From Escherichia coli (GTDB lineage: Bacteria; Pseudomonadota; Gammaproteobacteria; Enterobacterales; Enterobacteriaceae), in the NCBI RefSeq assembly GCF_013315695.1, contig NZ_CP054353.1: DNA of 64,000 nucleotides; one strand, 5' to 3'. The notes under the pieces are model-generated. The model saw only the letters and a program-made list of their open reading frames with translations, did not search any database and was not told where the DNA came from. Below, one piece after another: positions 4,905-53,081 of the stretch; positions within the stretch are counted from its first letter, which is position 1; every line of letters starts with the position of its first letter. The translations under genes and the position numbers were made by a program.

Positions 4905-6121
4905 AGGTCGGCTTCTTTTTACTGAAATTTCCACTGTCGTCGGAAACCTTCGTCCTCAATCAAATTACCGCGTTTATTGATATGGGCTTTGAGGTGGAGA
5001 TTGTCGCGCTGCAAAAAGGCGACACACAAAACACCCACGCGGCATGGACAAAATATAACCTTGCCGCCAGAACCCGCTGGTTACAGGACGAGCCACAAGG
5101 CAAAGTGGCGAAACTGCGCCACCGCGCCAGCCAGACGTTGCGCGGTATTCATCGTAAAAATACCTGGCAGGCGCTTAACCTCAAACGCTATGGTGCTGAG
5201 TCGCGGAACCTGATTTTGTCTGCCATTTGCGGCCAGGTCGCAACACCGTTTCATGCCGATGTGTTTATCGCTCATTTTGGCCCTGCTGGGGTAACCGCGG
5301 CAAAACTACGCGAACTGGGTGTCATTCGCGGCAAAATTGCCACTATCTTCCACGGTATTGATATCTCCAGTCGGGAAGTGCTCAACCACTACACTCCCGA
5401 ATATCAACAACTGTTTCGCCGTGGCGACCTGATGTTACCAATAAGCAATCTGTGGGCCGGAAGGCTGCAAAAAATGGGCTGCCCGAGGGAAAAAATCGCC
5501 GTATCGCGCATGGGCGTGGACATGACGCGTTTTAGCCCGCGTCCGGTGAAAGCGCCCGCAACGCCGCTGGAAATCATCTCCGTCGCACGCTTAACCGAGA
5601 AAAAAGGCCTGCATGTGGCGATTGAAGCCTGCCGCCAGTTGAAAGAGCAGGGCGTGGCATTTCGCTATCGCATCCTCGGCATTGGCCCGTGGGAACGACG
5701 CCTGCGCACCCTCATCGAACAATATCAACTGGAAGATGTGATAGAGATGCCGGGCTTTAAACCGAGCCATGAAGTGAAAGCGATGCTCGATGACGCGGAT
5801 GTCTTCCTGTTGCCATCGGTTACAGGTGCGGATGGCGATATGGAAGGTATTCCGGTGGCGCTAATGGAAGCGATGGCGGTTGGCATTCCGGTTGTTTCTA
5901 CTCTGCACAGCGGAATACCGGAACTGGTGGAGGCCGATAAATCCGGTTGGCTGGTGCCTGAGAACGATGCCTGTGCACTGGCGCAACGACTGGCGGCGTT
6001 TAGCCAACTGGACACCGACGAACTTACTACGGTTGTCAAACGTGCGCGCGAAAAAGTCGAACACGATTTTAACCAGCAGGTGATCAATCGAGAACTCGCC
6101 AGCTTGCTGCAGGCTTTATAG
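4901..6121 (+). CDS. wcaL: colanic acid glycosyltransferase (GT1/GT4-like)
   Basis: 406-aa ORF overlapping wcaK stop by 4 nt; GT-B type C-terminal domain; synteny. Confidence 0.85.
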
Positions 6122-6131
6122 AGGAGAACGT

Positions 6132-7526
6132 ATGCCATTTAAAAAACTCTCCCGACGCACCTTCCTGACGGCAAGCTCGGCGCTTGCCTTCCTCCATACC
6201 CCTTTCGCTCGCGCGCTTCCCGCCCGACAAATCGTTAACATTAACGACTACAACCCACACGACTGGATCGCCTCATTTAAACAAGCCTTCAGCGAAGGGC
6301 AAACGGTCGTCGTGCCTGCCGGATTCGTTTGTGAAAATATCAACACCGGCATCTTCATTCCTCCTGGCAAAACGTTGCACATCCTTGGAAGCCTGCGCGG
6401 CAACGGCAGAGGGCGTTTTGTCTTACAAGACGGCAGCCAGGTGACAGGGGAGAAGGGCGGCCGTATGCATAACATCACCCTGGATGTGCGCGGTTCTGAC
6501 TGCATCATCAAAGGGTTGGCGATGAGCGGTTTTGGCCCGGTAACGCAGATTTATATCGGCGGCAAAAATAAACGCGTCATGCGCAACTTGACCATCGATA
6601 ACCTGACCGTCAGCCACGCTAATTACGCCATTTTACGCCAGGGATTTCATAACCAGATTATCGGTGCCAACATCACCAATTGTAAGTTCAGCGACTTACA
6701 GGGCGACGCCATTGAATGGAATGTAGCAATCAATGATCGCGACATTTTGATATCCGACCATGTCATCGAGCGCATCAACTGTACTAACGGCAAAATCAAC
6801 TGGGGTATTGGCATAGGACTGGCAGGAAGTACTTACGATAATAATTATCCGGAAAACCAGGCAGTGAAAAACTTTGTCGTTGCGAATATCACGGGATCAG
6901 ATTGTCGGCAACTGATCCATGTTGAAAATGGTAAACATTTTGTTATCCGTAATATCAAAGCTCGTAATATCACGCCGGATTTCAGTAAGAAAGCAGGTAT
7001 TGATAACGCCACAGTTGCTATTTATGGTTGTGACAACTTTGTGATTGATAATATTGAAATGATTAATAGTGCCGGGATGTTAATCGGCTATGGGGTAATT
7101 AAAGGCAAATATCTCTCGATACCGCAGAATTTCCGAGTGAATGATATTCAACTGGATAATACTCATCTTGCTTATAAATTGCGCGGCATCCAAATCTCCG
7201 CCGGGAATGCTGTCTCCTTTGTGGCGCTGACTAACATTGAGATGAAGCGTGCGTCGCTGGAGTTACACAACAAACCGCAACATCTTTTTATGCGAAATAT
7301 CAATGTGATGCAGGAATCCTCAGTTGGACCCGCATTGAGCATGAACTTTGACATGCGCAAAGACGTTCGCGGCGTGTTTATGGCGAAAAAAGAAACACTG
7401 CTGTCTCTTGCAAATGTTCATGCGGTGAATGAAAAAGGACAAATCTCCGTCGATATCGACAGGATTAATCACCATATTGTTAATGTGGAGAAGATTAACT
7501 TTAGATTGCCAGAACGGAGGGAGTAG
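6132..7526 (+). CDS. wcaM: colanic acid biosynthesis protein WcaM (signal-peptide protein, beta-helix-like)
   Basis: 464-aa ORF with N-terminal signal-like sequence; last gene of the wca cluster before galF. Confidence 0.85.
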
Positions 7527-39205: not shown

Positions 39206-39724
39206 ATGAGTGTGCCGCAAACAAAAGCTGAACTGCTTTTAGCTATTGATAAAAATTTTAGTAAATTAATTAGTTACCTCAACACAATCCCACCAGAAAT
39301 TACTTCAGATAAATCAATGGACGGACACGCCAAAGGAACGGAGATGAGTGTTCGTGATCTCGTTTCGTATCTGCTTGGATGGAATGCTCTTGTTGTAAAG
39401 TGGATCGCTTCTGATGCTAAAGGTCTGCCTGTCGATTTTCCGGAAACTGGCTATAAATGGAATCAGCTTGGCCTTCTTGCTCAAAAATTTTACTCAGATT
39501 ACAGTGAGTTAAGTTATGAGTTGTTAGTAGCTGAACTTCAGACTGTAAAAAATGAGATTGTGAACCTTATTAATGATCGTACCGATGATATTTTGTATGG
39601 AAGACCATGGTACACAAAATGGACGATGGGGAGAATGATCTCATTTAACACATCTTCGCCTTACGCCAACGCTAATGGAAGATTAAGAAAGTGGGCAAAA
39701 AATAATAATATCAGTTTAAAGTAA
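39206..39724 (+). CDS. ClbS/DfsB-like (DUF1706) protein, putative colibactin/DNA-damage self-protection protein; passenger gene of the ISL3 element
   Basis: 172-aa ORF with good RBS (gagaggga); shares with remembered ClbS the motifs HAKGT, VSYLxGW, LGxLAQKFY, YGxPWYxKWTxGRMIxFNTxSPYxNAxGRL. Confidence 0.6.
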   Translation: MSVPQTKAELLLAIDKNFSKLISYLNTIPPEITSDKSMDGHAKGTEMSVRDLVSYLLGWNALVVKWIASDAKGLPVDFPETGYKWNQLGLLAQKFYSDYSELSYELLVAELQTVKNEIVNLINDRTDDILYGRPWYTKWTMGRMISFNTSSPYANANGRLRKWAKNNNISLK

Positions 39725-39742
39725 GCTTCAGAATGAAATTAT

Positions 39743-40963
39743 ATGGACGAAAAATCCCTCTATGCCCATATCCTTAACCTGACTGCACCATGGCAGGTTA
39801 AATCCCTTACCCTCGATGAAAATGCAGGTTCCGTTACTGTTACAGTCGGAATTGCTGAAAATACTCAGTTAACCTGTCCGACCTGCAGGAAATCCTGTTC
39901 TGTTCACGATCACCGACATCGTAAATGGCGCCACCTTGATACCTGCCAGTTCATGACATTAGTAGAAGCCGATGTTCCCCGCGTTATGTGCCCGGAGCAT
40001 GGCTGCCAGACTCTGCCTGTACCGTGGGCAGGTTCCGGCAGTCGGTACACTCTGCTGTTCGAATCGTTCGTGCTCTCATGGCTTAAAATCAGCACCGTTG
40101 ATGCGGTCAGAAAACAACTTAAACTTAGCTGGAATGCCGTTGACGGCATCATGACCCGCGCGGTTAAGCGAGGCCTGTCGCGGATTAAAAAGCCTTTATC
40201 AGTGCGTCATATGAATGTAGACGAAGTCGCCTTTAAAAAAGGGCATAGGTATATAACCGTGGTATCTGATCGCGACGGGCGGGCACTGGCATTAACCGAT
40301 GATCGTGGCACAGAGAGTCTTGCCAGCTATCTCCGTTCGCTTACTGACAGTCAGTTGTTGGCCATCAAAACACTGTCGATGGACATGAATGCGGGCTATA
40401 TAAGAGCAGCGCGTATCCATTTACCCAATGCGGTCGAGAAAATCGCCTTCGATCGCTTCCATGTGGCGAAGCAACTGGGCGAAGTGGTTGATAAAACCCG
40501 CCAGAATGAACATCCGCACCTCCCTGTTGAAAGTCGTCGTCAGGCCAAAGGTACCCGCTTCCTGTGGCAGTACAGCGACAAATGGATGACTGAGTCCCGG
40601 CAGGAAAAGCTGATGTGGTTGCGGGAACAGATGCAACAGACAAGCCAGTGCTGGACACTGAAAGAGCTGGCAAAAAATATCTGGGATCGCCCCTGGAGCA
40701 CAGAACGCAGGAATGACTGGTTGCAGTGGATATCGCTGGCGTCTGAATGTGATGTGCCGATGATGAAAAACGCAGCGAAAACCATTAAAAAACGGTTATA
40801 CGGAATACTGAATGCAATGCGTCATCGCGTCTCGAATGGAAATGCGGAGGCGCTGAACAGCAAGATCAGACTGCTGAGGATAAAGGCCAGGGGATACCGA
40901 AACCGGGAACGCTTTAAACTGGGAGTTATGTTCCACTATGGGAAACTGAATATGGCGTACTGA
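39743..40963 (+). CDS. ISL3-family transposase
   Basis: 406-aa ORF; N-terminal Cys-rich zf-ISL3-like region ([14 protein letters not shown]) followed by a DDE_Tnp_ISL3-like domain; stop codon abuts the right inverted repeat. Confidence 0.85.
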
Positions 40964-42749: not shown

Positions 42750-42920
42750 TTCCTGAACTTCAGAATCATCTTGCTGCTGCTTCGATTCAGCAAGGATAAA
42801 GGGTATGATAGTGAAAAGGGATAAAAGCATTGTCATCTGCGGCAGCTATGAGTAATGTTGGCCCTAACGAATAGCGGTTGCTTAAACGAATCCGACTCTC
42901 ACATTATCAGGGGTATAAAA

Positions 42921-43250
42921 ATGGAAACTACCAAGCCTTCATTCCAGGACGTACTGGAATTTGTTCGTCTGTTCCGTCGTAAGAACAAACTGCAACGTGA
43001 AATTCAGGACGTTGAGAAAAAGATCCGTGACAACCAGAAGCGCGTCCTGTTGCTGGACAACCTGAGCGATTACATCAAGCCAGGGATGAGCGTTGAAGCA
43101 ATCCAGGGCATCATCGCCAGCATGAAAGGTGACTATGAAGATCGCGTTGACGATTACATCATCAAAAATGCCGAGCTCTCCAAAGAACGCCGCGATATCT
43201 CCAAAAAGCTGAAAGCTATGGGCGAAATGAAAAACGGCGAAGCGAAGTAA
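42921..43250 (+). CDS. yeeX: UPF0265/DUF496 protein YeeX
   Basis: ORF 42855..43250; internal Met gives [28 protein letters not shown] (109 aa). Confidence 0.9.
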
Positions 43251-43263
43251 TTCCCGTTTTATT

Positions 43264-43292
43264 CAATGAGGGTTGCCCGGCAACCCTCATTG
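43264..43292. terminator. 12-bp-stem hairpin after yeeX (no clear U-tract)
   Basis: caatgagggttg-cccgg-caaccctcattg perfect inverted repeat 14 bp after the yeeX stop. Confidence 0.4.
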
Positions 43293-43350
43293 CTCATTGA
43301 TTCTTATCTGTGTATCACCGTCATCATTCTCATCTGAGAACCAATCGAAA

Positions 43351-43575
43351 TTAACAACAGCCTTCTTCTGTATGCAGCAAGGCAAAAAGTTCTGTAACTC
43401 CATTGTTATTAACTGCACTGGTTACTAACACGTTGTGCGCTCCAGCTTCCCGTAACCAACTTTTCACCAAAGATATTTGTTCCATGCTGGCTAAATCTGC
43501 TTTGGTTACTACTCCAATGACCGGGTGATTCATGGCCCGGTAGGGCGTTTTTACCTCTAATTCCTGCTTCAGCGC
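43351..43575 (-). pseudogene. 3' remnant of a small EutP/PduV-family GTPase gene (G4 TKxD and G5 SA motifs only)
   Basis: Minus-strand ORF C-terminus ..NHPVIGVVTKADLASMEQISLVKSWLREAGAHNVLVTSAVNNNGVTELFALL; the upstream part of the ORF call is antisense to an IS66 fragment and not credible. Confidence 0.35.
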
Positions 43576-43589
43576 TGAGATTCCTGCTT

Positions 43590-43733
43590 GTTGCCGGAAA
43601 AGCAGGCACCTGCCGTCTGAACGGTATCGATCCGGAAGCGTATCTGCGCCATATTCTGAGCATACTGCCGGAATGGCCCTCCAACCGTGTTGACGAACTC
43701 CTGCCATGGAACGTAGTTCTCACCAATAAATAA
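43590..43733 (+). mobile_element. IS66-family transposase C-terminal fragment
   Basis: Translates to ..AGKAGTCRLNGIDPEAYLRHILSILPEWPSNRVDELLPWNVVLTNK*, the conserved C-terminal motif of IS66-family TnpC; no intact upstream ORF. Confidence 0.55.
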
Positions 43734-44147
43734 GCGTCAATACGGTGCTCCGTTGACGCTTACTTTAATCCGTTTTCTGAGCTTAGATTTTTCTGTTCCT
43801 ACCCAGACCGTGGATTTGGAATTCATTTTTTGTCAGGTCAATGCTAATCGTTAAAACGGCCATAACGCACCTCCACTGGAAGGTTTATCAGTAATATCCT
43901 ACCGTTGCTTCATGGTCGGGGCGTCCATTCCATTATTATCGGTTTTCCTTTCTGTTTATAAATGAAAACGCCAGCTGTATTCAGGCTGGCGTCAGGGGAA
44001 ATGAAGCCTGTTGAGTGAGATTCACCGGTTCTGGTGCAGAAGCTGCAGATGGCGCAGGGTAAGGACATCTTCTCTTGCCTGCTTAATACAGGACAACAGT
44101 GCTGTTTCTGTGGTTAATGGCACTATACCCTGTATCACTGCATTGTC

Positions 44148-44342
44148 TTACAGCAACTGGTGAGGGCTGGCATAAGTTGCCGGTGTTTCGGTAGAGTCAC
44201 GGCCATCCACCACGCGGAGTGAATAACCGTTTTCAGCGGCCTTATTAATCAGTTCAGTGATATTAACACCATCAATGTCAACGACAATGTGCCCCATATC
44301 CAGCGCCTGTACGTTAACGCTGTCGGCTTCCAGTGTCATCAT
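44148..44342 (-). CDS. yeeW: CP4-44-type prophage protein YeeW
   Basis: 64-aa ORF overlapping the cbtA stop; matches remembered YeeW. Confidence 0.7.
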   Translation of the reverse strand: MMTLEADSVNVQALDMGHIVVDIDGVNITELINKAAENGYSLRVVDGRDSTETPATYASPHQLL

Positions 44343-44713
44343 TTCGCCTCCGGATACTTACCCAGGGTAATGTTATTTACCGTTCTGTAATTGTCGCGGG
44401 TCATCAGGCCGGTCGCCCTGCGAGCCCGGAGGATATCGATGCTGTTTATTAACTGAGAGCGGGTACAGGCGCTGAATCCCGGCTGGTCGGTACGCACCAG
44501 CGCGTATTTTTCCACGAGAAAGTTCACCGCATCACACAGTGAAATGCCTGCCTCAATATGCTGCTCAATCACACGTTCATCGGCAAACGGTGTGTCATTC
44601 AGTGTGAGGCCGTAGTGCTGGTCCAGCAGTCGGGACAGCAGTATCTGCCAGATTTCAACAGGAGACGGGCGAGAACTGGCCGCCTGCCCGGGTAATACAG
44701 GTAATGTTTTCAT
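44339..44713 (-). CDS. cbtA: CbtA toxin (cytoskeleton-binding toxin, YeeV family)
   Basis: 124-aa ORF MKTLPVLPGQAASSRPSPVEIWQILLSRLLDQHYGLTLNDTPFADE.. matches remembered CbtA. Confidence 0.92.
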   Translation of the reverse strand: MKTLPVLPGQAASSRPSPVEIWQILLSRLLDQHYGLTLNDTPFADERVIEQHIEAGISLCDAVNFLVEKYALVRTDQPGFSACTRSQLINSIDILRARRATGLMTRDNYRTVNNITLGKYPEAK

Positions 44714-44801
44714 ACTGAAGATTTTCCTGATATGCAGATATAAAAATGGGAAAGTGGCGTGGTGAAAACACCAGGCCGTAGCAGAAGGCTATTCTGGAGA
44801 G

Positions 44802-45170
44802 TTAATTTTTCATTTCGGGCGTCGGATAAACAGCCAGATAAACGTAACCACAACTGCTGAGGGTATCGGCTTCACAGGCCAGCCCCTTCGCATACAGCGT
44901 GACGGTATGCTGAGTGCGGGGATTCAGTTCACCGCTGGTGAGCATGAGTTCCAGTTGTTTCATCAGCAGCGGAAAGGCCTGGTCCAGGGGGTACGCATCT
45001 GCATCGCTGGACAGGCCTCTGATACCGGCGCGGTCGGCAAGGTAATGCAACCGGTTACCCTCCTGCACCAGACGTGCCCCGAAACAGGGCGTCACGGTGC
45101 AGGGCAGCCCCCACTAGGGGCGGTCGTGATTGTCGTCGGGAAGTGTTGTCCCGGGGAGTGTGTCTGACAC
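44802..45170 (-). pseudogene. cbeA: CbeA (YeeU) antitoxin gene with premature amber codon at codon 19
   Basis: From GTG 45170: VSDTLPGTTLPDDNHDRP-TAG-WGLPCTVTPCFGARLVQEG..; TAG at 45114..45116 where I remember Trp in K-12; longest ORF 44802..45095 would need internal GTG reinitiation. Confidence 0.8.
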
Positions 45171-45243
45171 GATAAAATCCTTACAGAAAATCGGTTAAGA
45201 ATGGTCCGGTGGTGGCGATAATTCTGCTCATCAGAATTCCCAC

Positions 45244-45465
45244 TCAGTTCAGGGTGACGCTCATCAGTCGGACATACGGGCCAAAACTGTCCTTACGGCG
45301 TTCAGCAAACACGGCCAGCACACCGGGAATATCCTGCACTTCACGACCGGTATACGCTTCAGCACTGCCGTGCCAGCGGTATTTACCGGTACAGAACGGA
45401 AAAAGACGGGATGTCGGATGTTGTTGGTGAATACGCATGGCTTCACCACGGGTGATAATTTTCAT
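45244..45465 (-). CDS. yeeT: DUF987 protein YeeT
   Basis: 73-aa ORF MKIITRGEAMRIHQQHPTSRLFPFCTGKYRWHG.. Confidence 0.85.
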   Translation of the reverse strand: MKIITRGEAMRIHQQHPTSRLFPFCTGKYRWHGSAEAYTGREVQDIPGVLAVFAERRKDSFGPYVRLMSVTLN

Positions 45466-45527
45466 AATGGGATACCTCTGAAGACAGAAGATAAAAGTGA
45501 AAACAGGTGTGATGTGGTTGTGACGGG

Positions 45528-45974
45528 TTAAAGCAGACCATGTTCGGCAAAGGAGAAAACCTGGCTGCCACCGACTATCAGATGGTCCGGCACCCGGATA
45601 TCCACCAGGCCCAGTGCCTGTACCAGACGTTCCGTGATAAGGCGGTCTGCCTTGCTGGGTGTGACTTCACCGGACGGGTGATTGTGTGCCAGCACCACGG
45701 CAGCGGCATTGTGGTACAGGGCGCGTTTAATCACTTCCCGGGGATGGACTTCCGTGCGGTTGATGGTGCCGGTGAAGAGGGTTTCACCGGCAATCAGCTG
45801 ATTCTGGTTATTCAGATACAGCACCCGGAATTCTTCACGCTCCAGTCCCGCCATGTTCAGAATCAGCCATTCCCGTGCCGCACGGGTGGAGGTGAAGGCC
45901 ACGCCGGGTTCATGAAGATGGCGGTCCAGGGTTTTCAGGGCCCGCTGAATGAGGCTGCGCTCGCCGGGCGTCAT
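45528..45974 (-). CDS. yeeS: RadC-like JAB-domain protein YeeS (start uncertain; alternative starts at 46004 and 46019)
   Basis: ORF 45528..46019 with HNHPSG JAMM-like motif. Confidence 0.8.
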   Translation of the reverse strand: MTPGERSLIQRALKTLDRHLHEPGVAFTSTRAAREWLILNMAGLEREEFRVLYLNNQNQLIAGETLFTGTINRTEVHPREVIKRALYHNAAAVVLAHNHPSGEVTPSKADRLITERLVQALGLVDIRVPDHLIVGGSQVFSFAEHGLL

Positions 45975-46019
45975 CTCTCCGGGCAGAAAGGAAAGCTGCT
46001 GCATTGTCCCTGCCTCCAT

Positions 46020-46484
46020 TCAGTCGATGATGCGCATAATGGCGCTGCATTCCGGATGCTGCAGGGCATAATCCCGCAGCCGGTAATAATGAACCGTCAT
46101 GGCATAATTCTCTGTACGACAGGCGTGATGGCTGTACGCCATCAGACAGGCGGCAATGCCGGCGGCTTCCGGGCTCATTTCAGCGCGGTTACCGTTCATG
46201 ACGTTAAACAGCACCCATGTTTCGTCATCATCGTCATCCGGTTCGGGTGCCATAAATGCGCCACCGTTGTTCAGGGTGTACAGATTCCAGATACCACCGC
46301 AGTAGTCTTCATACAGACGGTCCATCCAGCCGAAGACCCGGGGCTCCAGGGTCACCCACTGTGGAATGAGGCCAAAATGCTGCGGCCAGAAGCTGATGCG
46401 CTGTTCATCAGGGACTATGGTGGCAACCAGTTGTTGCAGGCCAGTCTCCGGTGCACAGGCCGAAGAGGTGGTGTTCTGAGACAA
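46020..46484 (-). CDS. antirestriction protein (KlcA/ArdB-like); 5' end abuts the IS element, N-terminus possibly altered
   Basis: 154-aa ORF with TTG start only 5 nt from the IS right end; acidic DDDDDE stretch; position equivalent to yfjX/yafX-type genes in CP4-family prophages. Confidence 0.65.
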   Translation of the reverse strand: MSQNTTSSACAPETGLQQLVATIVPDEQRISFWPQHFGLIPQWVTLEPRVFGWMDRLYEDYCGGIWNLYTLNNGGAFMAPEPDDDDDETWVLFNVMNGNRAEMSPEAAGIAACLMAYSHHACRTENYAMTVHYYRLRDYALQHPECSAIMRIID

Positions 46485-46496
46485 TGTTTGTAGTGG

Positions 46497-47747
<1,251 letters not shown>

Positions 47748-47785
47748 GTTTCCTCTGACTCGTGTCAGTCGGTCTCTGGTTGTAT

Positions 47786-47824
47786 CCACGGACCGCACTC
47801 TTGACATAAGAGTGCGGTCCGTGG
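47786..47824. repeat. perfect 17-bp inverted repeat with 5-nt loop
   Basis: ccacggaccgcactctt-gacat-aagagtgcggtccgtgg, 40 bp outside the IS3 end; no adjacent U-tract. Confidence 0.6.
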
Positions 47825-49250
47825 AAAACGGAGTTGAAAAAATGGTGTCTGAAAGAAGGTACCATCATTGCGATGACAAACACTTTGGCGTGGATAATGT
47901 AATTAATTGCTGAAATTGACCGTATATGCGGTAAGACTCATATCAGTATCAGGTCCGGTTAATTGCTGATACTGACATAAACTTTTTACAAAAGGATGAA
48001 TGCAGAAGGTTACTCTAATGGCCAGAGTGATGACAATGATGGTCAGACGTTGACCTGCAGAAACTGCATTTTAATTGGTCTATAAAGTCTGCAAGAGGAA
48101 TCAGGGTCAGATCAGTGAGTCTTATCGCGGCCCGAAGCTATGACTGAAAGAAGGCTGGATACAGAATTGCAACAATTTGGCAATGTCAGAACACAGAAGC
48201 TTTGCAAGCAGGTGAAAGGTTATGTCTAGAAAAAGGAGTATATCAGAATACATCTACTGATGTACAAAACACAACAATAGCTTCATGATATATAAATACG
48301 TGATGACGAGTGGTACTCCGCATGGTTATTTAACTTCTCAGCACCACTAATGATCCTGAGCAACTTCGTATTTGGGCCATTGCCATGGAGTAGAAAGCTG
48401 TGTCTGAGAATGCAGAATTTGAGAAAAGAATTCGCTTTCTTGGAGAGCTTCTGAAAATGGCACGCTAACAACGCTTTGTTAAAAAATGTGAATCACTTGC
48501 CGAGGCTGCATTTTCTATTCGAGGAGAATGTTGACGTAGATATTACAGAAATCTCAGCGCATCAGGATAAACTGCTACCTTAGGTCAACCACCAAAAGAA
48601 AATACAATACGTCCAGTTTGTATGCCTTTAATAACACATCTTTTAAATGTTGAAGAATTATCCCGCCTGCTGAAGAACGTTGCTCTGAGTGTGATAAACC
48701 TTTTTATTCTTGATGATGTCAGCGAGAAGATGGAATATATCCCCGACTGGGTCGTGGTTACCCGGTTAAACATCTGGTGGCGCTAATAAATCTGGCAAGT
48801 CACATTCTGTTGAATGCTGTGACAGTGCCTTACCGAGAGAGCGAAATTGTGGTGTTCTAGTGCATAGTCGCCACCATTCCGGATAATTTTATTGCGTTGT
48901 TTTACAACTTCTTTTACAGCGCAGATCTGTCGCTGACGTTGAATCAATAGCCTGGATTTCAGAACACAATGCCCGTTTGCTGGTTGGTCCGGCAGTAGCA
49001 TTAATTCATTATCTGAATGAAATGTGTCAATCCACAGAAACCGCTGTCAATGACGCATTTTGTCGGACGTTAACACGAGAAAGTCTGGCTATTCCGTAAT
49101 GCCATCTTATTTCGTAATGGATTGAGAATGCTGGATTTTTAATTATATTACGCGCAGTATTAATCGCGTAAATGTTTTGCGGTCAGCAACGGTGGGGGAT
49201 CCATTGCTCTGTTCAATGAATACCATCATACATTTGAATCAGGAGTCGGT

Positions 49251-49796
49251 ATGATGATTTTGGTGACGGGAGGCGCACGGAGCGGGAAGAGTCGCCACGC
49301 AGAGGTGCTTATTGGGGACTCTTCACAGGTTCTGTATATCGCTACCTCGCAAATCCTTGATGATGAGATGGCTGCACGGATAGAACATCATCGGCAAAGC
49401 CGCCCGGAGCACTGGCGCACAGTGGAGCGCTGGCAACATCTTGATGAATTAATTCATGCAGACATTAACCCGAATGAGGCTGTGTTGCTGGAATGCGTTA
49501 CCACAATGGTGACTAATCTGTTGTTTGATTATGGCGGCGATAAAGACCCTGATGAATGGGATTATCAGGCGATGGAACAGGCGATTAATGCTGAGATTCA
49601 GTCGTTGATTGCTGCCTGCCAACGTTGCCCCGCAAAGGTTGTATTAGTGACTAACGAAGTGGGAATGGGGATTGTGCCGGAGAGTCGTCTGGCACGACAT
49701 TTTCGTGATATTGCCGGGCGGGTAAATCAGCAGTTGGCCGCTGCGGCAAATGAAGTATGGCTGGTGGTTTCGGGTATTGGAGTAAAAATCAAATGA
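49251..49796 (+). CDS. cobU: adenosylcobinamide kinase / adenosylcobinamide-phosphate guanylyltransferase
   Basis: 181-aa [18 protein letters not shown]-loop. Confidence 0.93.
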
Positions 49797-50536
49797 GTAA
49801 ATTATTTTGGGCGATGCTCTCATTTATTACGCGTCTGCCTGTACCGCGTCGCTGGTCCCAGGGACTGGATTTCGAGCATTATTCTCGCGGTATTATTACT
49901 TTTCCTTTGATTGGATTATTGCTTGGCGCGATTAGCGGGCTGGTCTTCATGGTGCTGCAGGCATGGTGTGGCGTACCACTGGCGGCACTGTTTAGCGTAC
50001 TTGTGCTGGCGCTGATGACCGGGGGATTCCATCTGGACGGCCTCGCTGATACCTGTGATGGCGTATTTTCTGCACGTAGCCGCGATCGCATGTTGGAAAT
50101 CATGCGTGATAGCCGTTTAGGCACCCACGGCGGTCTGGCATTGATTTTTGTGGTACTGGCAAAGATTCTGGTGTTAAGCGAGTTGGCTCTGCGTGGCGAA
50201 CCGATCCTTGCATCGCTGGCGGCAGCATGTGCGGTCAGCCGCGGGACTGCCGCATTATTGATGTATCGTCATCGTTATGCGCGGGAAGAAGGGCTTGGCA
50301 ATGTGTTCATTGGCAAAATTGATGGGCGACAAACCTGCGTCACACTCGGCTTAGCCGCTATTTTTGCTGCCGTATTATTGCCGGGTATGCATGGTGTGGC
50401 TGCTATGGTGGTGACGATGGTGGCGATTTTCATCCTCGGTCAGCTTCTCAAACGTACGCTGGGCGGGCAAACGGGCGATACGCTGGGAGCAGCCATAGAG
50501 TTTGGTGAACTGGTTTTCCTGCTGGCACTGCTATAA
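49793..50536 (+). CDS. cobS: cobalamin 5'-phosphate synthase
   Basis: ORF 49757..50536; ATG at 49793 overlaps cobU stop (ATGA), [18 protein letters not shown]; membrane protein. Confidence 0.93.
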
Positions 50537-50547
50537 AGAGACGTGAC

Positions 50548-51627
50548 ATGCAAATACTTGCCGATTTACTGAATACGATCCCAGCCATCAATTCTGCCGC
50601 TATGTCGCGTGCACAACGGCATGTTGACGGGTTACTCAAACCTGTTGGTAGCCTGGGAAAGCTGGAGGCGCTTGCCATACAACTGGCAGGAATGCCGGGG
50701 TTGAATGGCATACCGCATGTGGGCAAAAAAGCAGTACTGGTTATGTGTGCCGATCACGGCGTCTGGGAGGAAGGGGTCGCTATTTCTCCAAAAGAAGTGA
50801 CAGCCATACAGGCTGAAAATATGACCCGTGGAACAACCGGCGTGTGTGTGCTGGCAGCACAAGCGGGCGCTAACGTCCACGTAATTGATGTTGGTATTGA
50901 TACTGCTGAGCCTATCCCCGGGCTTATCAACATGCGTGTCGCACGAGGTAGCGGCAATATTGCTTCAGCTCCGGCAATGAGTCGCCGTCAGGCTGAAAAG
51001 TTGCTTTTGGACGTCATATGTTATACGCGGGAGCTGGCAAAAAACGGTGTCACGCTGTTTGGTGTAGGTGAACTGGGGATGGCAAACACGACACCGGCAG
51101 CGGCAATAGTCAGCACAATCACTGGCCGGGATCCTGAAGAAGTGGTTGGGATTGGCGCAAACCTGCCGACAGATAAACTGGCTAATAAAATTGATGTTGT
51201 GCGTCGGGCGATTACGTTGAATCAACCAAATCCTCAGGATGGTGTTGATGTCCTGGCAAAAGTGGGTGGATTTGATTTGGTCGGAATAGCTGGAGTGATG
51301 TTAGGTGCTGCTTCCTGCGGTTTACCCGTGTTGCTGGATGGATTTCTTTCTTATGCTGCTGCGCTCGCAGCCTGCCAGATGTCTCCTGCAATCAAACCGT
51401 ATCTCATTCCTTCTCACTTGTCGGCAGAAAAAGGCGCGCGTATAGCGCTCTCGCATTTGGGGCTGGAGCCTTATCTCAATATGGATATGCGTTTAGGTGA
51501 GGGGAGTGGTGCAGCTCTGGCGATGTCCATCATCGAAGCTGCTTGTGCGATATACAACAACATGGGCGAACTTGCTGCCAGTAATATTGTTCTACCGGGG
51601 AATACGACTTCTGATTTGAACAGCTAA
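50548..51627 (+). CDS. cobT: nicotinate-nucleotide--dimethylbenzimidazole phosphoribosyltransferase
   Basis: 359-aa ORF following cobS. Confidence 0.93.
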
Positions 51628-51691
51628 AAACGAAAAGTCTGATAAAAGCTATACTTATCGGATAGTATTCGCGACTTAGGAAAGGGACATG

Positions 51692-52624
51692 ATGCGTCGT
51701 GTAAATATTCTTTGCTCATTTGCTCTGCTTTTTGCCAGCCAAAATAGCCTGGCGGTAACTTATCCATTACCTCCAGAGGGTAGCCGTTTAGTGGGGCAGT
51801 CGCTTACTGTAACTGTTCCTGATCACAATACTCAGCCGCTGGAGACTTTTGCCGCACAATACGGGCAAGGGTTAAGTAATATGCTGGAAGCGAATCCGGG
51901 CGCTGATGTTTTTTTGCCGAAGCCTGGCTCACAACTCACCATTCCGCAGCAACTGATTTTGCCCGCCACTGTTCGTAAAGGGATTGTGGTTAACGTCGCT
52001 GAAATGCGTCTTTATTACTATCCGCCAGACAGTAATACAGTGGAAGTCTTTCCTATTGGTATCGGCCAGGCTGGGCGAGAAACCCCGCGTAACTGGGTGA
52101 CTACCGTTGAACGTAAACAAGAAGCACCAACCTGGACGCCAACGCCGAACACCCGGCGCGAATATGCGAAACGAGGGGAGAGTTTGCCCGCATTTGTTCC
52201 TGCGGGGCCCGATAACCCCATGGGGCTGTACGCGATTTATATTGGCAAGTTGTATGCCATCCACGGTACCAATGCCAATTTTGGTATTGGGCTCCGTGTA
52301 AGTCAGGGCTGTATTCGTCTGCGTAATGACGATATCAAATATCTGTTTGATAATGTTCCTGTAGGCACTCGTGTACAAATTATTGATCAGCCAGTGAAAT
52401 ACACAACGGAACCGGATGGTTCAAAGTGGCTGGAAGTTCATGAGCCGCTGTCGCGCAATCGTGCAGAATATGAGTCTGACCGAAAAGTGCCATTGCCGGT
52501 AACCCCATCTTTGCGGGCGTTTATCAACGGGCAAGAAGTTGATGTAAATCGCGCAAATGCTGCGTTGCAACATCGATCGGGAATGCCTGTGCAAATTAGT
52601 TCTGGTTCAAGACAGATGTTTTAA
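51692..52624 (+). CDS. ldtA: L,D-transpeptidase (ErfK/LdtA)
   Basis: ORF 51689..52624; [16 protein letters not shown] signal peptide; YkuD-domain. Confidence 0.9.
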
Positions 52625-52649
52625 GAGCGTTGGTAATTAGAAAGTAAAA

Positions 52650-52675
52650 AGCCTGCTCGAAAGCAGGCTTTTTTG
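52650..52675. terminator. bidirectional terminator between ldtA and tRNA-Asn
   Basis: agcctgct-cgaa-agcaggct hairpin flanked by an A-run and a T6 run. Confidence 0.8.
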
Positions 52676-52679
52676 AATT

Positions 52680-52755
52680 TGGCTCCTCTGACTGGACTCG
52701 AACCAGTGACATACGGATTAACAGTCCGCCGTTCTACCGACTGAACTACAGAGGA
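52680..52755 (-). tRNA. asnV: tRNA-Asn (GUU)
   Basis: 76-nt reverse complement of TCCTCTGTAGTTCAGTCGGTAGAACGGCGGACTGTTAATCCGTATGTCACTGGTTCGAGTCCAGTCAGAGGAGCCA; anticodon loop CUGUUAA; symbol by K-12 synteny. Confidence 0.95.
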
Positions 52756-53081
52756 ATCGTGTGAACGGGGCGCATATTAATGGCAGTGCATGGTGATGTC
52801 AAAGGGTGAAATGCATTTTTTTGTTTGTTTGCTGACAATTTCAACAAAGTGGTGAGCTTTCAATCTTATTGGGTAATGAACCATCGTGGTGCATACCCCC
52901 CTTTTATAGGGCAGGTGAATGCGACTGCTGATAAAAAGGGCCAATGACGAATCTATCATAATCTCTTATTTGACAGTTGGTTAGCTTGCGCATCAACGCT
53001 AAAATAGAACTGGCAAGCATCTTGCATTCTGGTTGTAAGTAATGGCGGCACTTGGGCCGATTCTTAAAAACCGGAGGCAAC

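Follow-up and report, generated by a model that had tools for sequence, protein, structure and literature searches.

The stretch directly upstream of cobU, a gene of vitamin-B12 salvage, in this strain of Escherichia coli is not a single decayed gene but a row of several relics: two broken insertion-sequence transposase genes, followed by the scar of a deletion in the cbi genes for B12 synthesis. Within the window (the whole stretch of 64,000 nucleotides from contig NZ_CP054353.1 that was analysed), positions 48620-49110 are very probably non-coding debris made up of juxtaposed relics, none of which would be able to encode its original protein. The initial annotation had stated that no ORF longer than about 70 codons lies between the IS3 element and cobU. 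This holds, with a maximum of 72: between the end of the IS3-family element (~47746) and cobU (49251) the longest ORF is one of 72 aa (48783-49001, minus strand), followed by one of 71 aa that starts within the IS3 end (47698-47913) and one of 62 aa. The protein-like plus-strand stretches broken by stops, which the same annotation had described, proved to be real homologues of known proteins by tblastn, BLASTP and HMM comparison, with similarity far beyond chance, and both peptides that it quoted were found exactly, one as a 54-aa ORF (48622-48786) and one as a 40-aa ORF (48977-49099). Its proposal of a decayed gene was right as to the decay but not as to a single gene, since 48620-49110 holds at least three unrelated relics.

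The sequence is not confined to this strain: at least the cobU-proximal end of the region has a match in 5403 of the 5426 complete E. coli genomes, and at least 80% of 47720-49250 is present in 3440 of them. The relic stretch is ordinary and mostly annotated already, both as K-12 pseudogenes and as the IS4 and “cobalamin biosynthesis protein” pseudogenes of PGAP, and the finding of relics here is unsurprising to a specialist. A Pfam search of the raw frame translations and of the 111-aa relic of strain N3 gave no matches, which is uninformative for pieces so short and so interrupted. Rfam (E-value mode, 44000-53000) returned only tRNA and an isrC-family match within the IS3 element.

The island and its insertion-sequence relics

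The relics farthest from cobU belong to a much-reduced CP4-44 / PAI-cobU island (43534..48954; the name PAI-cobU is from PMC7545054), which takes the place of L003:4721-5000 in the island-free strain N3; the DNA before it (42900-43533) aligns with N3 at L003:4087-4720. The island carries yeeW, cbtA, a yeeU-type antitoxin, yeeT, yeeS, an antirestriction gene and an IS3-family element, and then insertion-sequence debris. Its right edge lies at 48954/48955, with homology to island-free and pdu+ strains beginning at 48955, while on its far side stands a pduV' fragment (43351..43533, minus strand), which PGAP, in its annotation of the identical strain AF3, places in the EutP/PduV family and which forms the opposite lip of the scar left by the ancestral pdu-cbi deletion.

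The debris opens with the C-terminal fragment of an IS110-family transposase (47792..47953, plus strand; K-12 pseudogene yoeH), which matches an IS110-family transposase of 339 aa at residues 284-337 (50% identity, tblastn E=1.8e-10). The 3' non-coding end of the same element follows (47939..48207, plus strand); over 277 bp it shares 73% of its DNA sequence with what lies downstream of the transposase gene in another locus (L093). Plasmid pEND_Eco 14033-1 was considered as a better-preserved copy and set aside; it carries the same chromosomal segment at ~99% identity.

Next comes an IS66-family relic (48204..48764, plus strand) that makes up most of yoeG and consists of a tnpB' 3' end, a spacer, and tnpC' codons 1-165 from 48322, the first third of that gene. 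Over 580 bp its DNA is 70% identical to that of an IS66-family element (L094), the match beginning at 48204 in the last tnpB codons, where the collinear TnpB protein match is weak (E=0.41); a tnpA signal was not found for this relic. TnpC residues 1-165 align with 48322-48765 across stops (tblastn E=1.6e-20), and the frame-corrected translation gives a BLASTP E of 8e-48 and matches 233 plasmids, the annotated genes among the matches listed being IS66 family transposases. Compared with IS66-family elements (plasmid CP099011.1; IS682-like elements of O157 plasmids), the relic is collinear over TnpC 1-165 at 43-46% identity and shares the N-terminal coiled region, the first zinc-finger CxxC (ERCSECD, with CSEC at ~48680) and the tnpB 3' end upstream; unlike an intact IS66-family tnpC, it is cut at codon 165 and has stops, frameshifts and a 14-codon deletion. 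The DDE catalytic domain (DDE_Tnp_IS66) is absent, the alignment ending at residue 165, where IS4-family sequence begins, and Pfam giving no match; tnpC' is thus a relic and not a functional IS66 member.

The adjoining piece is an internal fragment of an IS4-family transposase (48759..48947, plus strand; aa 165-228 of 445), which forms the end of yoeG and the whole of yeeH. Its match to a 445-aa transposase of the WP_029488891.1 type is close (BLASTP 67% identity over aa 165-228, E=2e-26; tblastn 67-68%, E=3.9e-22; DNA identity 78%), its sole stop is an in-frame TAG at 48858-48860, and the NCBIfam IS4 model NF033592 reaches E=0.004, which is below the family cut-off. Unlike a complete IS4-family element, it retains 63 codons (189 bp), neither element end and no complete DDE transposase. 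PGAP annotates an IS4 pseudogene here, and that label is correct because both a distant DNA search and direct comparison identify an IS4-family fragment at 67% identity. An extension of IS66 TnpC over 48765-48947 (the “PLYRQSEI” region, from a weak BLASTP extension) was ruled out by the same IS4 identity.

Apart from the IS5 of K-12, the DNA of K-12 is ~99% identical to that of the window. The three CP4-44 pseudogenes of K-12 correspond to 47795-47953 (yoeH, b4641), 48322-48854 (yoeG, b4640) and 48861-48947 (yeeH, b4639). In K-12 an IS5H sits inside the CTAG at 48857-48860; the window strain is without it and, unlike K-12, has the IS3-family element ending at ~47746 and a much smaller island. 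The initial annotation had proposed alignment to K-12 as a check. The identity is indeed high, but what it matches there is curated pseudogenes and not plain intergenic sequence; it is no refutation of the relic reading, because K-12 curators list yoeG and yeeH as pseudogenes. The K-12 record that we consulted gives yoeG, yeeH and yoeH no product or family name. Judged by homology, yoeG is IS66 tnpC' plus IS4 tnp', yeeH is IS4 tnp' and yoeH is IS110 tnp', so that these pseudogenes become nameable as IS66, IS4 and IS110 relics.

The cbi deletion scar

Past the island edge, from 48955, the scar begins with a cbiG' fragment (48955..49020, plus strand; cbiG encodes cobalt-precorrin-5A hydrolase) placed by transitive homology at about codons 108-143, in the CbiG N-domain; ~22 cbiG codons survive, and compared with other alleles in E. 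coli 9 bp are deleted. The piece in the window is too short to be recognised alone (HMM positions 128-141, with E=2.9 for the whole sequence and E=5.1 for the matched stretch; BLASTP E=5.0), and because it scores so low the cbiG assignment rests on its orthology to longer relics. The stretch from 48955 matches the relics of E. whittamii and E69 (tblastn E of 3e-16 and 7e-14), and these orthologous relics match CbiG HMM positions 10-143 (E69 2e-27, E. whittamii 4e-24, N3 5e-8); further, the E. whittamii ORF matches a Pfam-verified CbiG (BLASTP E=1e-20) and the N3 relic matches the NCBIfam CbiG model (E=8e-4). CbiG_mid and CbiG_C are absent, every Escherichia relic ending at ~143 of ~370 HMM positions, whereas a genuine CbiG, from Kosakonia, shows all three Pfam domains. 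PGAP annotates a “cobalamin biosynthesis protein” pseudogene here; on this chain of homology, it is probably cbiG-derived.

The second peptide (48977-49099) opens with cbiG codons about 128-143 (...GPAVALIHYLNE) and then runs into a stretch without an assigned source. That junction stretch (49021..49112, plus strand), which includes the end of the peptide, was matched to no gene: the DNA similarity of 49030-49112 to cbiP nt -231..-142 has a z of about 0, and an nhmmer profile of six Escherichia junction sequences found nothing below E=0.8 in nine loci with cbi operon genes. The cbiG'/'cbiP junction is accordingly placed only to within 49021-49112. A tandem duplication (a ~18-bp repeat in 49064-49100) was also considered and rejected, only 11 of 18 positions matching by eye.

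The last relic before cobU is a 'cbiP relic (49113..49254, plus strand), which begins 3 bp past the 48620-49110 region and retains ~47 codons from the 3' end of cbiP, the gene for cobyric acid synthase, interrupted by stops and a frameshift. In global alignment with the last 141 nt of cbiP from four genera, including Citrobacter, Salmonella and Klebsiella, it reaches z=11-16, with 0 of 1000 shuffles attaining the observed score and flat controls, and nhmmer finds cbiP matches in collinear order in each of the seven Escherichia sequences examined. A protein HMM match covers the short run NGLRMLDF*LYYAQY*SRK, and the full-length CbiP HMM matches at about positions 452-477 only; the CbiA-type ATPase and GATase_3 domains, both of which intact CbiP shows, are absent. 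The ancestral cbiP TGA overlaps the ATG of cobU (49251..49796, plus strand; first gene of cobUST), as in intact operons, and the relic keeps this overlap. Against E. whittamii the relic is 81% identical and cobU 90%, so that the relic diverges ~1.8 times faster.

Other readings of the fragments

The initial annotation had suggested a cbi operon relic, for instance the cbiP 3' end, and as to kind this was borne out: a genuine cbiP 3' relic adjoins cobU, in the same orientation, from 49113. That the whole stretch upstream of cobU, second peptide included, should be decayed cbiP is nevertheless hardly credible. The peptide hint that would speak for it, NDAFCRTL beside the CbiP motif SDAFTRAL, scores -2.7 bits, and the DNA test was as flat (z about 0 over 49030-49112), cbiP similarity being significant only from 49113; moreover, the second peptide opens with sequence whose orthologues are the relics that match CbiG, and 48620-48947 is IS66 and IS4 transposase sequence. 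We regard an origin in cbiP alone as largely refuted, the second peptide being cbiG plus a stretch that matches no gene. The other suggestion, a CP4-44 remnant, stood as far as the location of the first peptide goes, for 48620-48954 is inside the island both as delimited here and in the K-12 annotation; it very probably does not hold for YeeP, YeeR or Flu as the source. IS66 or IS4 homology accounts for every island stretch within 48620-49110, and blastn of 43300-49300 against K-12 2062000-2072000 (yeeP, isrC, flu 5' end) returned only the collinear yoeH-yoeG-yeeH-cobU matches and, at the DNA level, no match to yeeP, isrC or the flu 5' end, so that remnants of such cargo genes are scarcely conceivable here and the material is insertion-sequence debris.

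A different possibility is that the short ORFs are genuine small protein genes, namely the 54-aa ORF, the 40-aa ORF or both. PGAP annotates the former (48622..48786, plus strand), the first peptide, as a CDS for a 'hypothetical protein' (WP_001128468.1), its sequence is ~99% conserved over thousands of E. coli genomes, and upstream of it lies a promoter-like TGTACA-17-CATGAT (48261..48289, plus strand; 33 bp upstream of the tnpC' start, and the one exact match in the window), whose hexamers are listed for yoeG as an RpoD-binding promoter in the table of a genomic SELEX study (PMC3946193). Such conservation is a product of the recent shared ancestry of E. coli strains rather than of constraint. 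The ORF itself is a frame-hopping tnpC' chimera: at either end it follows the TnpC frame, the TnpC match for its middle part (IPPAEERCSECDKPFY) is read in a different frame, and its last codons run into the IS4 fragment. In addition, the short ORFs match no Pfam or NCBIfam family, K-12 curators class the stretch of the 54-aa ORF as a pseudogene, and the K-12 IS5 ~70 bp downstream (48857-48860) splits the yoeG/yeeH relic with no known effect. Genuine genes are thus very improbable, and the 54-aa ORF, apparently stitched by accident from two tnpC' frames, is almost certainly spurious, which is of some value for annotation, as WP_001128468.1 can be treated accordingly.

Probable loss of a cbi-pdu cluster, and a candidate cobUST promoter

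In Salmonella, Citrobacter and Klebsiella the cbiA-P cobUST operon, with pocR, pduF and pdu alongside, occupies the same chromosomal neighbourhood, with sbcB-dacD-sbmC-yeeA-tmaR on one side and ldtA, tRNA-Asn and nac on the other. Unlike the intact operon, the present locus has no cbi coding capacity, ~22 cbiG and ~47 cbiP codons being left. Intermediate arrangements are found in related genomes: E. coli S1-ESP-03-A, E. whittamii and E69 have pduA-pduF-pocR-cobalamin riboswitch-cbiG'::'cbiP ORF-cobUST, with the riboswitch, pocR and pduF upstream as in intact operons, and strain N3 has tmaR-pduV'-cbiG' (from about codon 35)-cobU. A comparison of these extant genomes, rather than a phylogeny, suggests an order of events in which internal deletions in an Escherichia ancestor would have removed cbiA-cbiF and cbiG(3')-cbiP(5'), a later deletion in most E. 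coli would have taken out the segment from pduV into the 5' end of cbiG', and the PAI-cobU / CP4-44 island would now fill the pduV-cbiG' gap, which has been trimmed further.

The cbiG'/'cbiP scar is shared with pdu+/riboswitch+ genomes of E. coli and of the cryptic clades, and taken together these indicate that the Escherichia lineage formerly possessed a cbi-pdu cluster here, which it lost in steps. Such stepwise loss bears on the older view, reportedly that of Lawrence and Roth, that B12 synthesis in enterics went through “loss and reacquisition”. As for the scar itself, a full-text literature search, with Lawrence and Roth (1995) lying outside its scope, returned no account of the cbiG'/'cbiP relic.

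The riboswitch-to-cobU segment (at least 80% of it) is present in 645 of the 5426 complete E. coli genomes (about 12%), and these pdu-pocR-B12 riboswitch E. coli have an intact 145-codon cbiG'-derived ORF ahead of cobUST.

In pdu+ Escherichia in general, this ORF (144-145 codons) consists of a CbiG N-domain fused to unassigned sequence and lies between the cobalamin riboswitch and cobUST. Its retention is conceivable because it is open across lineages at Ks about 0.3, with Ka/Ks 0.43-0.64; it could be a riboswitch-gated translated leader needed for cobUST, or a truncated CbiG-N protein with its own function. In the lineage of the window the ORF is destroyed, and cobUST expression may depend on a promoter that arose inside the decayed cbiP. 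That the cbi scar is in these two respects not wholly inert (a retained ORF in pdu+ strains, and cobUST dependent on a promoter from decayed cbiP in the window lineage) is a tentative idea that we hold to be rather doubtful.

The candidate sigma-70 promoter of cobUST, TTGAGA-16-TATATT, lies inside the 'cbiP relic (49122..49149, plus strand). It is the one site that a promoter scan of 48250-49350 returned, a count no higher than chance gives (2.2 are expected in shuffles), and its hexamers fit the consensus at 10 of 12 positions. The same hexamers and spacing appear as a constitutive cobUST promoter in the RpoD genomic SELEX table (Shimada et al., 2014; PMC3946193), where the experiment shows the holoenzyme of RNA polymerase bound within the cobU-insH6 spacer and not a mapped transcription start; the table entry gives the promoter without the origin of its sequence, which is here placed within decayed cbiP codons. 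The promoter falls in the best-conserved part of the relic, with a pairwise identity of 0.90-0.93 against 0.72-0.80 in the flanks. The 'cbiP relic is plausibly the only part of the region still doing something, as a sigma-70 promoter and ribosome-binding region driving cobUST, and would provide a small example of a promoter within dead coding sequence. All 5403 of the genomes with a match keep the cobU-proximal end, the shortest among the matches listed being ~128 bp, with an IS1 upstream.

The Island and Its Insertion-Sequence Relics

The broken coding fragments at 48620-49110 lie between an IS3-family element (transposase 46497-47710, minus strand; element end at about 47746) and cobU (49251-49796). 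As the initial annotation had noted, this gap holds no long ORF (the longest run to 72, 71, and 62 codons), and both peptides that it quoted are found in the sequence. The 1,531 bases of 47720-49250 were compared with E. coli isolate AF3 and are 100% identical to it; 3440 of 5426 complete E. coli genomes carry at least 80% of this stretch, and the region upstream of cobU is near-universal in the species (5403 of the 5426 match at least the cobU-proximal end).

Comparison with the locus of the island-free strain N3 (L003) pairs window 42900-43533 with L003:4087-4720 and window 48955-49300 with L003:5001-5355; since the flanks match on either side, 43534-48954 is taken as an island in place of 280 bp of N3, with a pduV fragment (43351-43533) forming the far lip of the gap. 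The island is a heavily reduced CP4-44/PAI-cobU (the latter name is taken from PMC7545054).

The island side was resolved by a distant DNA search against plasmids and direct follow-up comparisons: 47747-48954 consists of three insertion-sequence relics end to end, of the IS110, IS66, and IS4 families. The IS110-family relic comprises a C-terminal transposase fragment (47792-47953; 50% identity to residues 284-337 of 339, E=1.8e-10) and the 3' non-coding end of the same element (approximately 47939-48207; 73% identity over 277 bp). The IS66-family relic (48204-48764) and an IS66 element share 70% of their DNA sequence over 580 bp; across stops, 48322-48765 aligns with TnpC residues 1-165 (E=1.6e-20), and the frame-corrected translation reaches E=8e-48 and matches 233 plasmids, where each listed match that has a gene annotation is an IS66 family transposase. 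The IS4-family fragment (48759-48947) has one in-frame TAG, and its identity to a transposase of 445 aa is 67% over residues 165-228 (E=2e-26); at that identity, a reading of 48765-48947 as further IS66 sequence was rejected, and the IS4 label given by PGAP is right. Many plasmids of Shigella and E. coli carry copies, of about 72% identity, of the roughly 270-bp IS110 non-coding relic (47939-48207). The non-coding ends of some IS110/IS1111 elements encode a guide (“bridge”) RNA; an Rfam search gave no match in this relic.

The components are all of familiar types (insertion-sequence fragments, a deletion scar, a sigma-70 promoter) and have already been publicly flagged as pseudogenes; what this analysis adds is the naming of the relics. 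On the identical strain, PGAP gives three features in the region: a 54-aa hypothetical protein (WP_001128468.1; 48622-48786), an “IS4 family transposase” pseudogene (48759-48947), and a “cobalamin biosynthesis protein” pseudogene (48956-49099). The hypothetical protein is the first quoted peptide; both its ends are in the TnpC frame, the TnpC match to its middle (IPPAEERCSECDKPFY) is in another frame, and its final codons enter the IS4 fragment. It is very likely an accidental ORF, a frame-hopping IS66 tnpC chimera, and a spurious CDS call. The curated K-12 record places pseudogenes yeeH, yoeG, and yoeH within cryptic prophage CP4-44, equivalent by blastn mapping to 48861-48947, 48322-48854, and 47795-47953, respectively. 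By sequence similarity, yoeG is IS66 tnpC' plus IS4 tnp', yeeH is IS4 tnp', and yoeH is IS110 tnp' (partial remnants of those genes). Unlike the window, K-12 carries an extra IS5H in the 4-bp CTAG matching 48857-48860, where the IS4 fragment has its in-frame stop, and for this reason has the relic as two pseudogenes, yoeG and yeeH.

Remnants of cbiG and cbiP

A relic of the cbiP 3' end, proposed initially for 48620-49110, does exist in the same region but starts 3 bases past the end of those fragments. This decayed cbiP end makes up the final 141 nt ahead of cobU: aligned globally with the 3' end of cbiP from Citrobacter, Salmonella, and Klebsiella, the stretch has z=11-16 (none of 1000 shuffles scored as high, and controls were flat), and nhmmer finds a collinear cbiP match in 7 of 7 Escherichia sequences. 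In alignment A3, the conserved segments are ...TACGCGCAGTAT.AATC... (YAQYKS) and ...ATACCATCAT.CA......CAGGAG.C.GTATGATG, and the ancestral cbiP TGA overlaps the cobU ATG. For the second quoted peptide (40 aa, 48977-49099), the suggestion of a cbi relic holds at its beginning, a remnant of cbiG (cbiG'), but the rest is not cbiP; comparison with cbiP and intact cbi operons found no source gene for 49021-49112, between the two remnants, so that the peptide is cbiG' plus unassigned sequence.

The case for cbiG comes from island-free and pdu-positive relatives, in which the sequence from 48955 onward has a longer form directly upstream of cobU: a 111-aa ORF in N3 and 144-145-aa ORFs in E. coli S1-ESP-03-A, E. 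whittamii, and strain E69. These longer relics match positions 10-143 (E69, 2e-27; E. whittamii, 4e-24; N3, 5e-8) of a CbiG HMM whose five source proteins are bona fide members; one of the five, from Kosakonia, has all of the Pfam domains CbiG_N, CbiG_mid, and CbiG_C. The E. whittamii ORF matches the Kosakonia protein by BLASTP (E=1e-20), and NCBIfam, independently, also indicates CbiG for the N3 relic. The window retains only the end of cbiG' (...EHNARLLVGPAVALIHYLNE); alone, this piece has no significant match to CbiG by HMM or BLASTP, and it is assigned to cbiG' because it is orthologous to the longer relics that do (tblastn E of 3e-16 and 7e-14). The PGAP “cobalamin” pseudogene is cbiG-derived, with the promoter carried by the separate cbiP relic. 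Our literature search, which did not reach Lawrence and Roth (1995), a paper that may describe it, found no description of the cbiG'/'cbiP scar.

The window/K-12 allele of cbiG' has a 9-bp deletion at about 48995-49005 (columns ~337-345 of alignment A1). N3, pdu+ E. coli, and the cryptic clades keep the three codons concerned (PAGGAV versus PAV), and the window/K-12 allele shares just 93-95% identity with theirs, versus 97.4% for cobU. Segments orthologous to window 48955-49250 in pdu+ E. coli and the cryptic Escherichia clades (L090:4514-5476, L007:6050-7000, and L009:6039-7000) have a cobalamin riboswitch, then an intact ORF of 144-145 codons, in which CbiG codons 1-143 are fused to unassigned sequence, and then cobUST. 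Lineages separated by a Ks of ~0.3 have kept this ORF open, with a Ka/Ks of 0.43-0.64 versus 0.10-0.22 for cobU; selection on it is relaxed, not clearly neutral, and it might be a candidate translated leader.

Deletion History and the cobUST Promoter

The extant genome states suggest a stepwise history. The earliest surviving state, seen in pdu-positive genomes, would be pduA...-pduF-pocR-cobalamin riboswitch-cbiG'::'cbiP-cobUST (Rfam gives the riboswitch 109-111 bits, and PGAP also annotates it), a state in which cbiA-cbiF and everything between cbiG codon ~143 and cbiP codon ~460 are already missing; at least 80% of the riboswitch-to-cobU segment is kept in 645 of 5426 complete genomes. N3-type strains lack, in addition, the stretch between pduV and about codon 35 of cbiG', and the K-12/window type has the island in the pduV-cbiG' gap, with cbiG' trimmed to about 22 codons. 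The latter is the majority type (~3,700 genomes match the short piece at 80-95% identity). Still shorter relics occur in O157, ET120, and Cn5, and in SLDY13, with IS1 ~127 bp upstream of cobU. Identity to E. whittamii is 81% for the relic versus 90% for cobU, and to N3 95.3% versus 97.4%; this faster divergence is as expected for mostly unconstrained DNA.

One promoter-like site only, TTGAGA-16-TATATT at 49122-49149, lies within 48250-49350, which by itself is not above chance (2.2 sites expected in shuffles). A genomic SELEX study (PMC3946193) lists the constitutive RpoD promoter of cobUST with identical hexamers and spacing. Across five Escherichia lineages, conservation of the relic is highest around this site (0.90-0.93 pairwise identity versus 0.72-0.80 nearby). 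At the aligned positions, intact cbiP genes read CTGACT...TTCCAA, and therefore the -10 element appears to have arisen after cbiP died. The cbiP relic now plausibly serves as the predicted promoter and 5' UTR of cobUST, and we conclude that everything within 48620-49110 is inert.

The truncations upstream of cobU form a nested series (N3, K-12, O157, ET120/Cn5, and the IS1 type of SLDY13, L005:5288-6001), with at least ~127 bp surviving in all types; in SLDY13, IS1 stands in place of the -35 hexamer (window 49124 equivalent).

Neighboring Observations

Rfam isrC (RF01387) has a full-length 145-bit match at 47556-47678 (minus strand), in orfA of the IS3-family transposase and on the same strand. 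The IS3 element (~46497-47746) has no blastn similarity to the K-12 stretch holding K-12's own isrC gene; the family may therefore model a transposase mRNA of an insertion sequence, at its 5' end. A copy of cobU and its upstream region, ~99% identical to the window and beside IS3-like sequences, occurs on an APEC IncFIB plasmid (L087; NZ_CP126949.1, 6525-14073), and is either chromosomal DNA captured by the plasmid or a misassembly. Elsewhere in the window, dacD and sbmC are separated by an insertion (39206-40963) that holds a ClbS/DfsB-family (colibactin self-resistance-like) gene and, after it, an ISEc53 transposase, an IS1A insertion splits the colanic-acid gene wcaM (5355-7526), and an O1-type O-antigen cluster is present.
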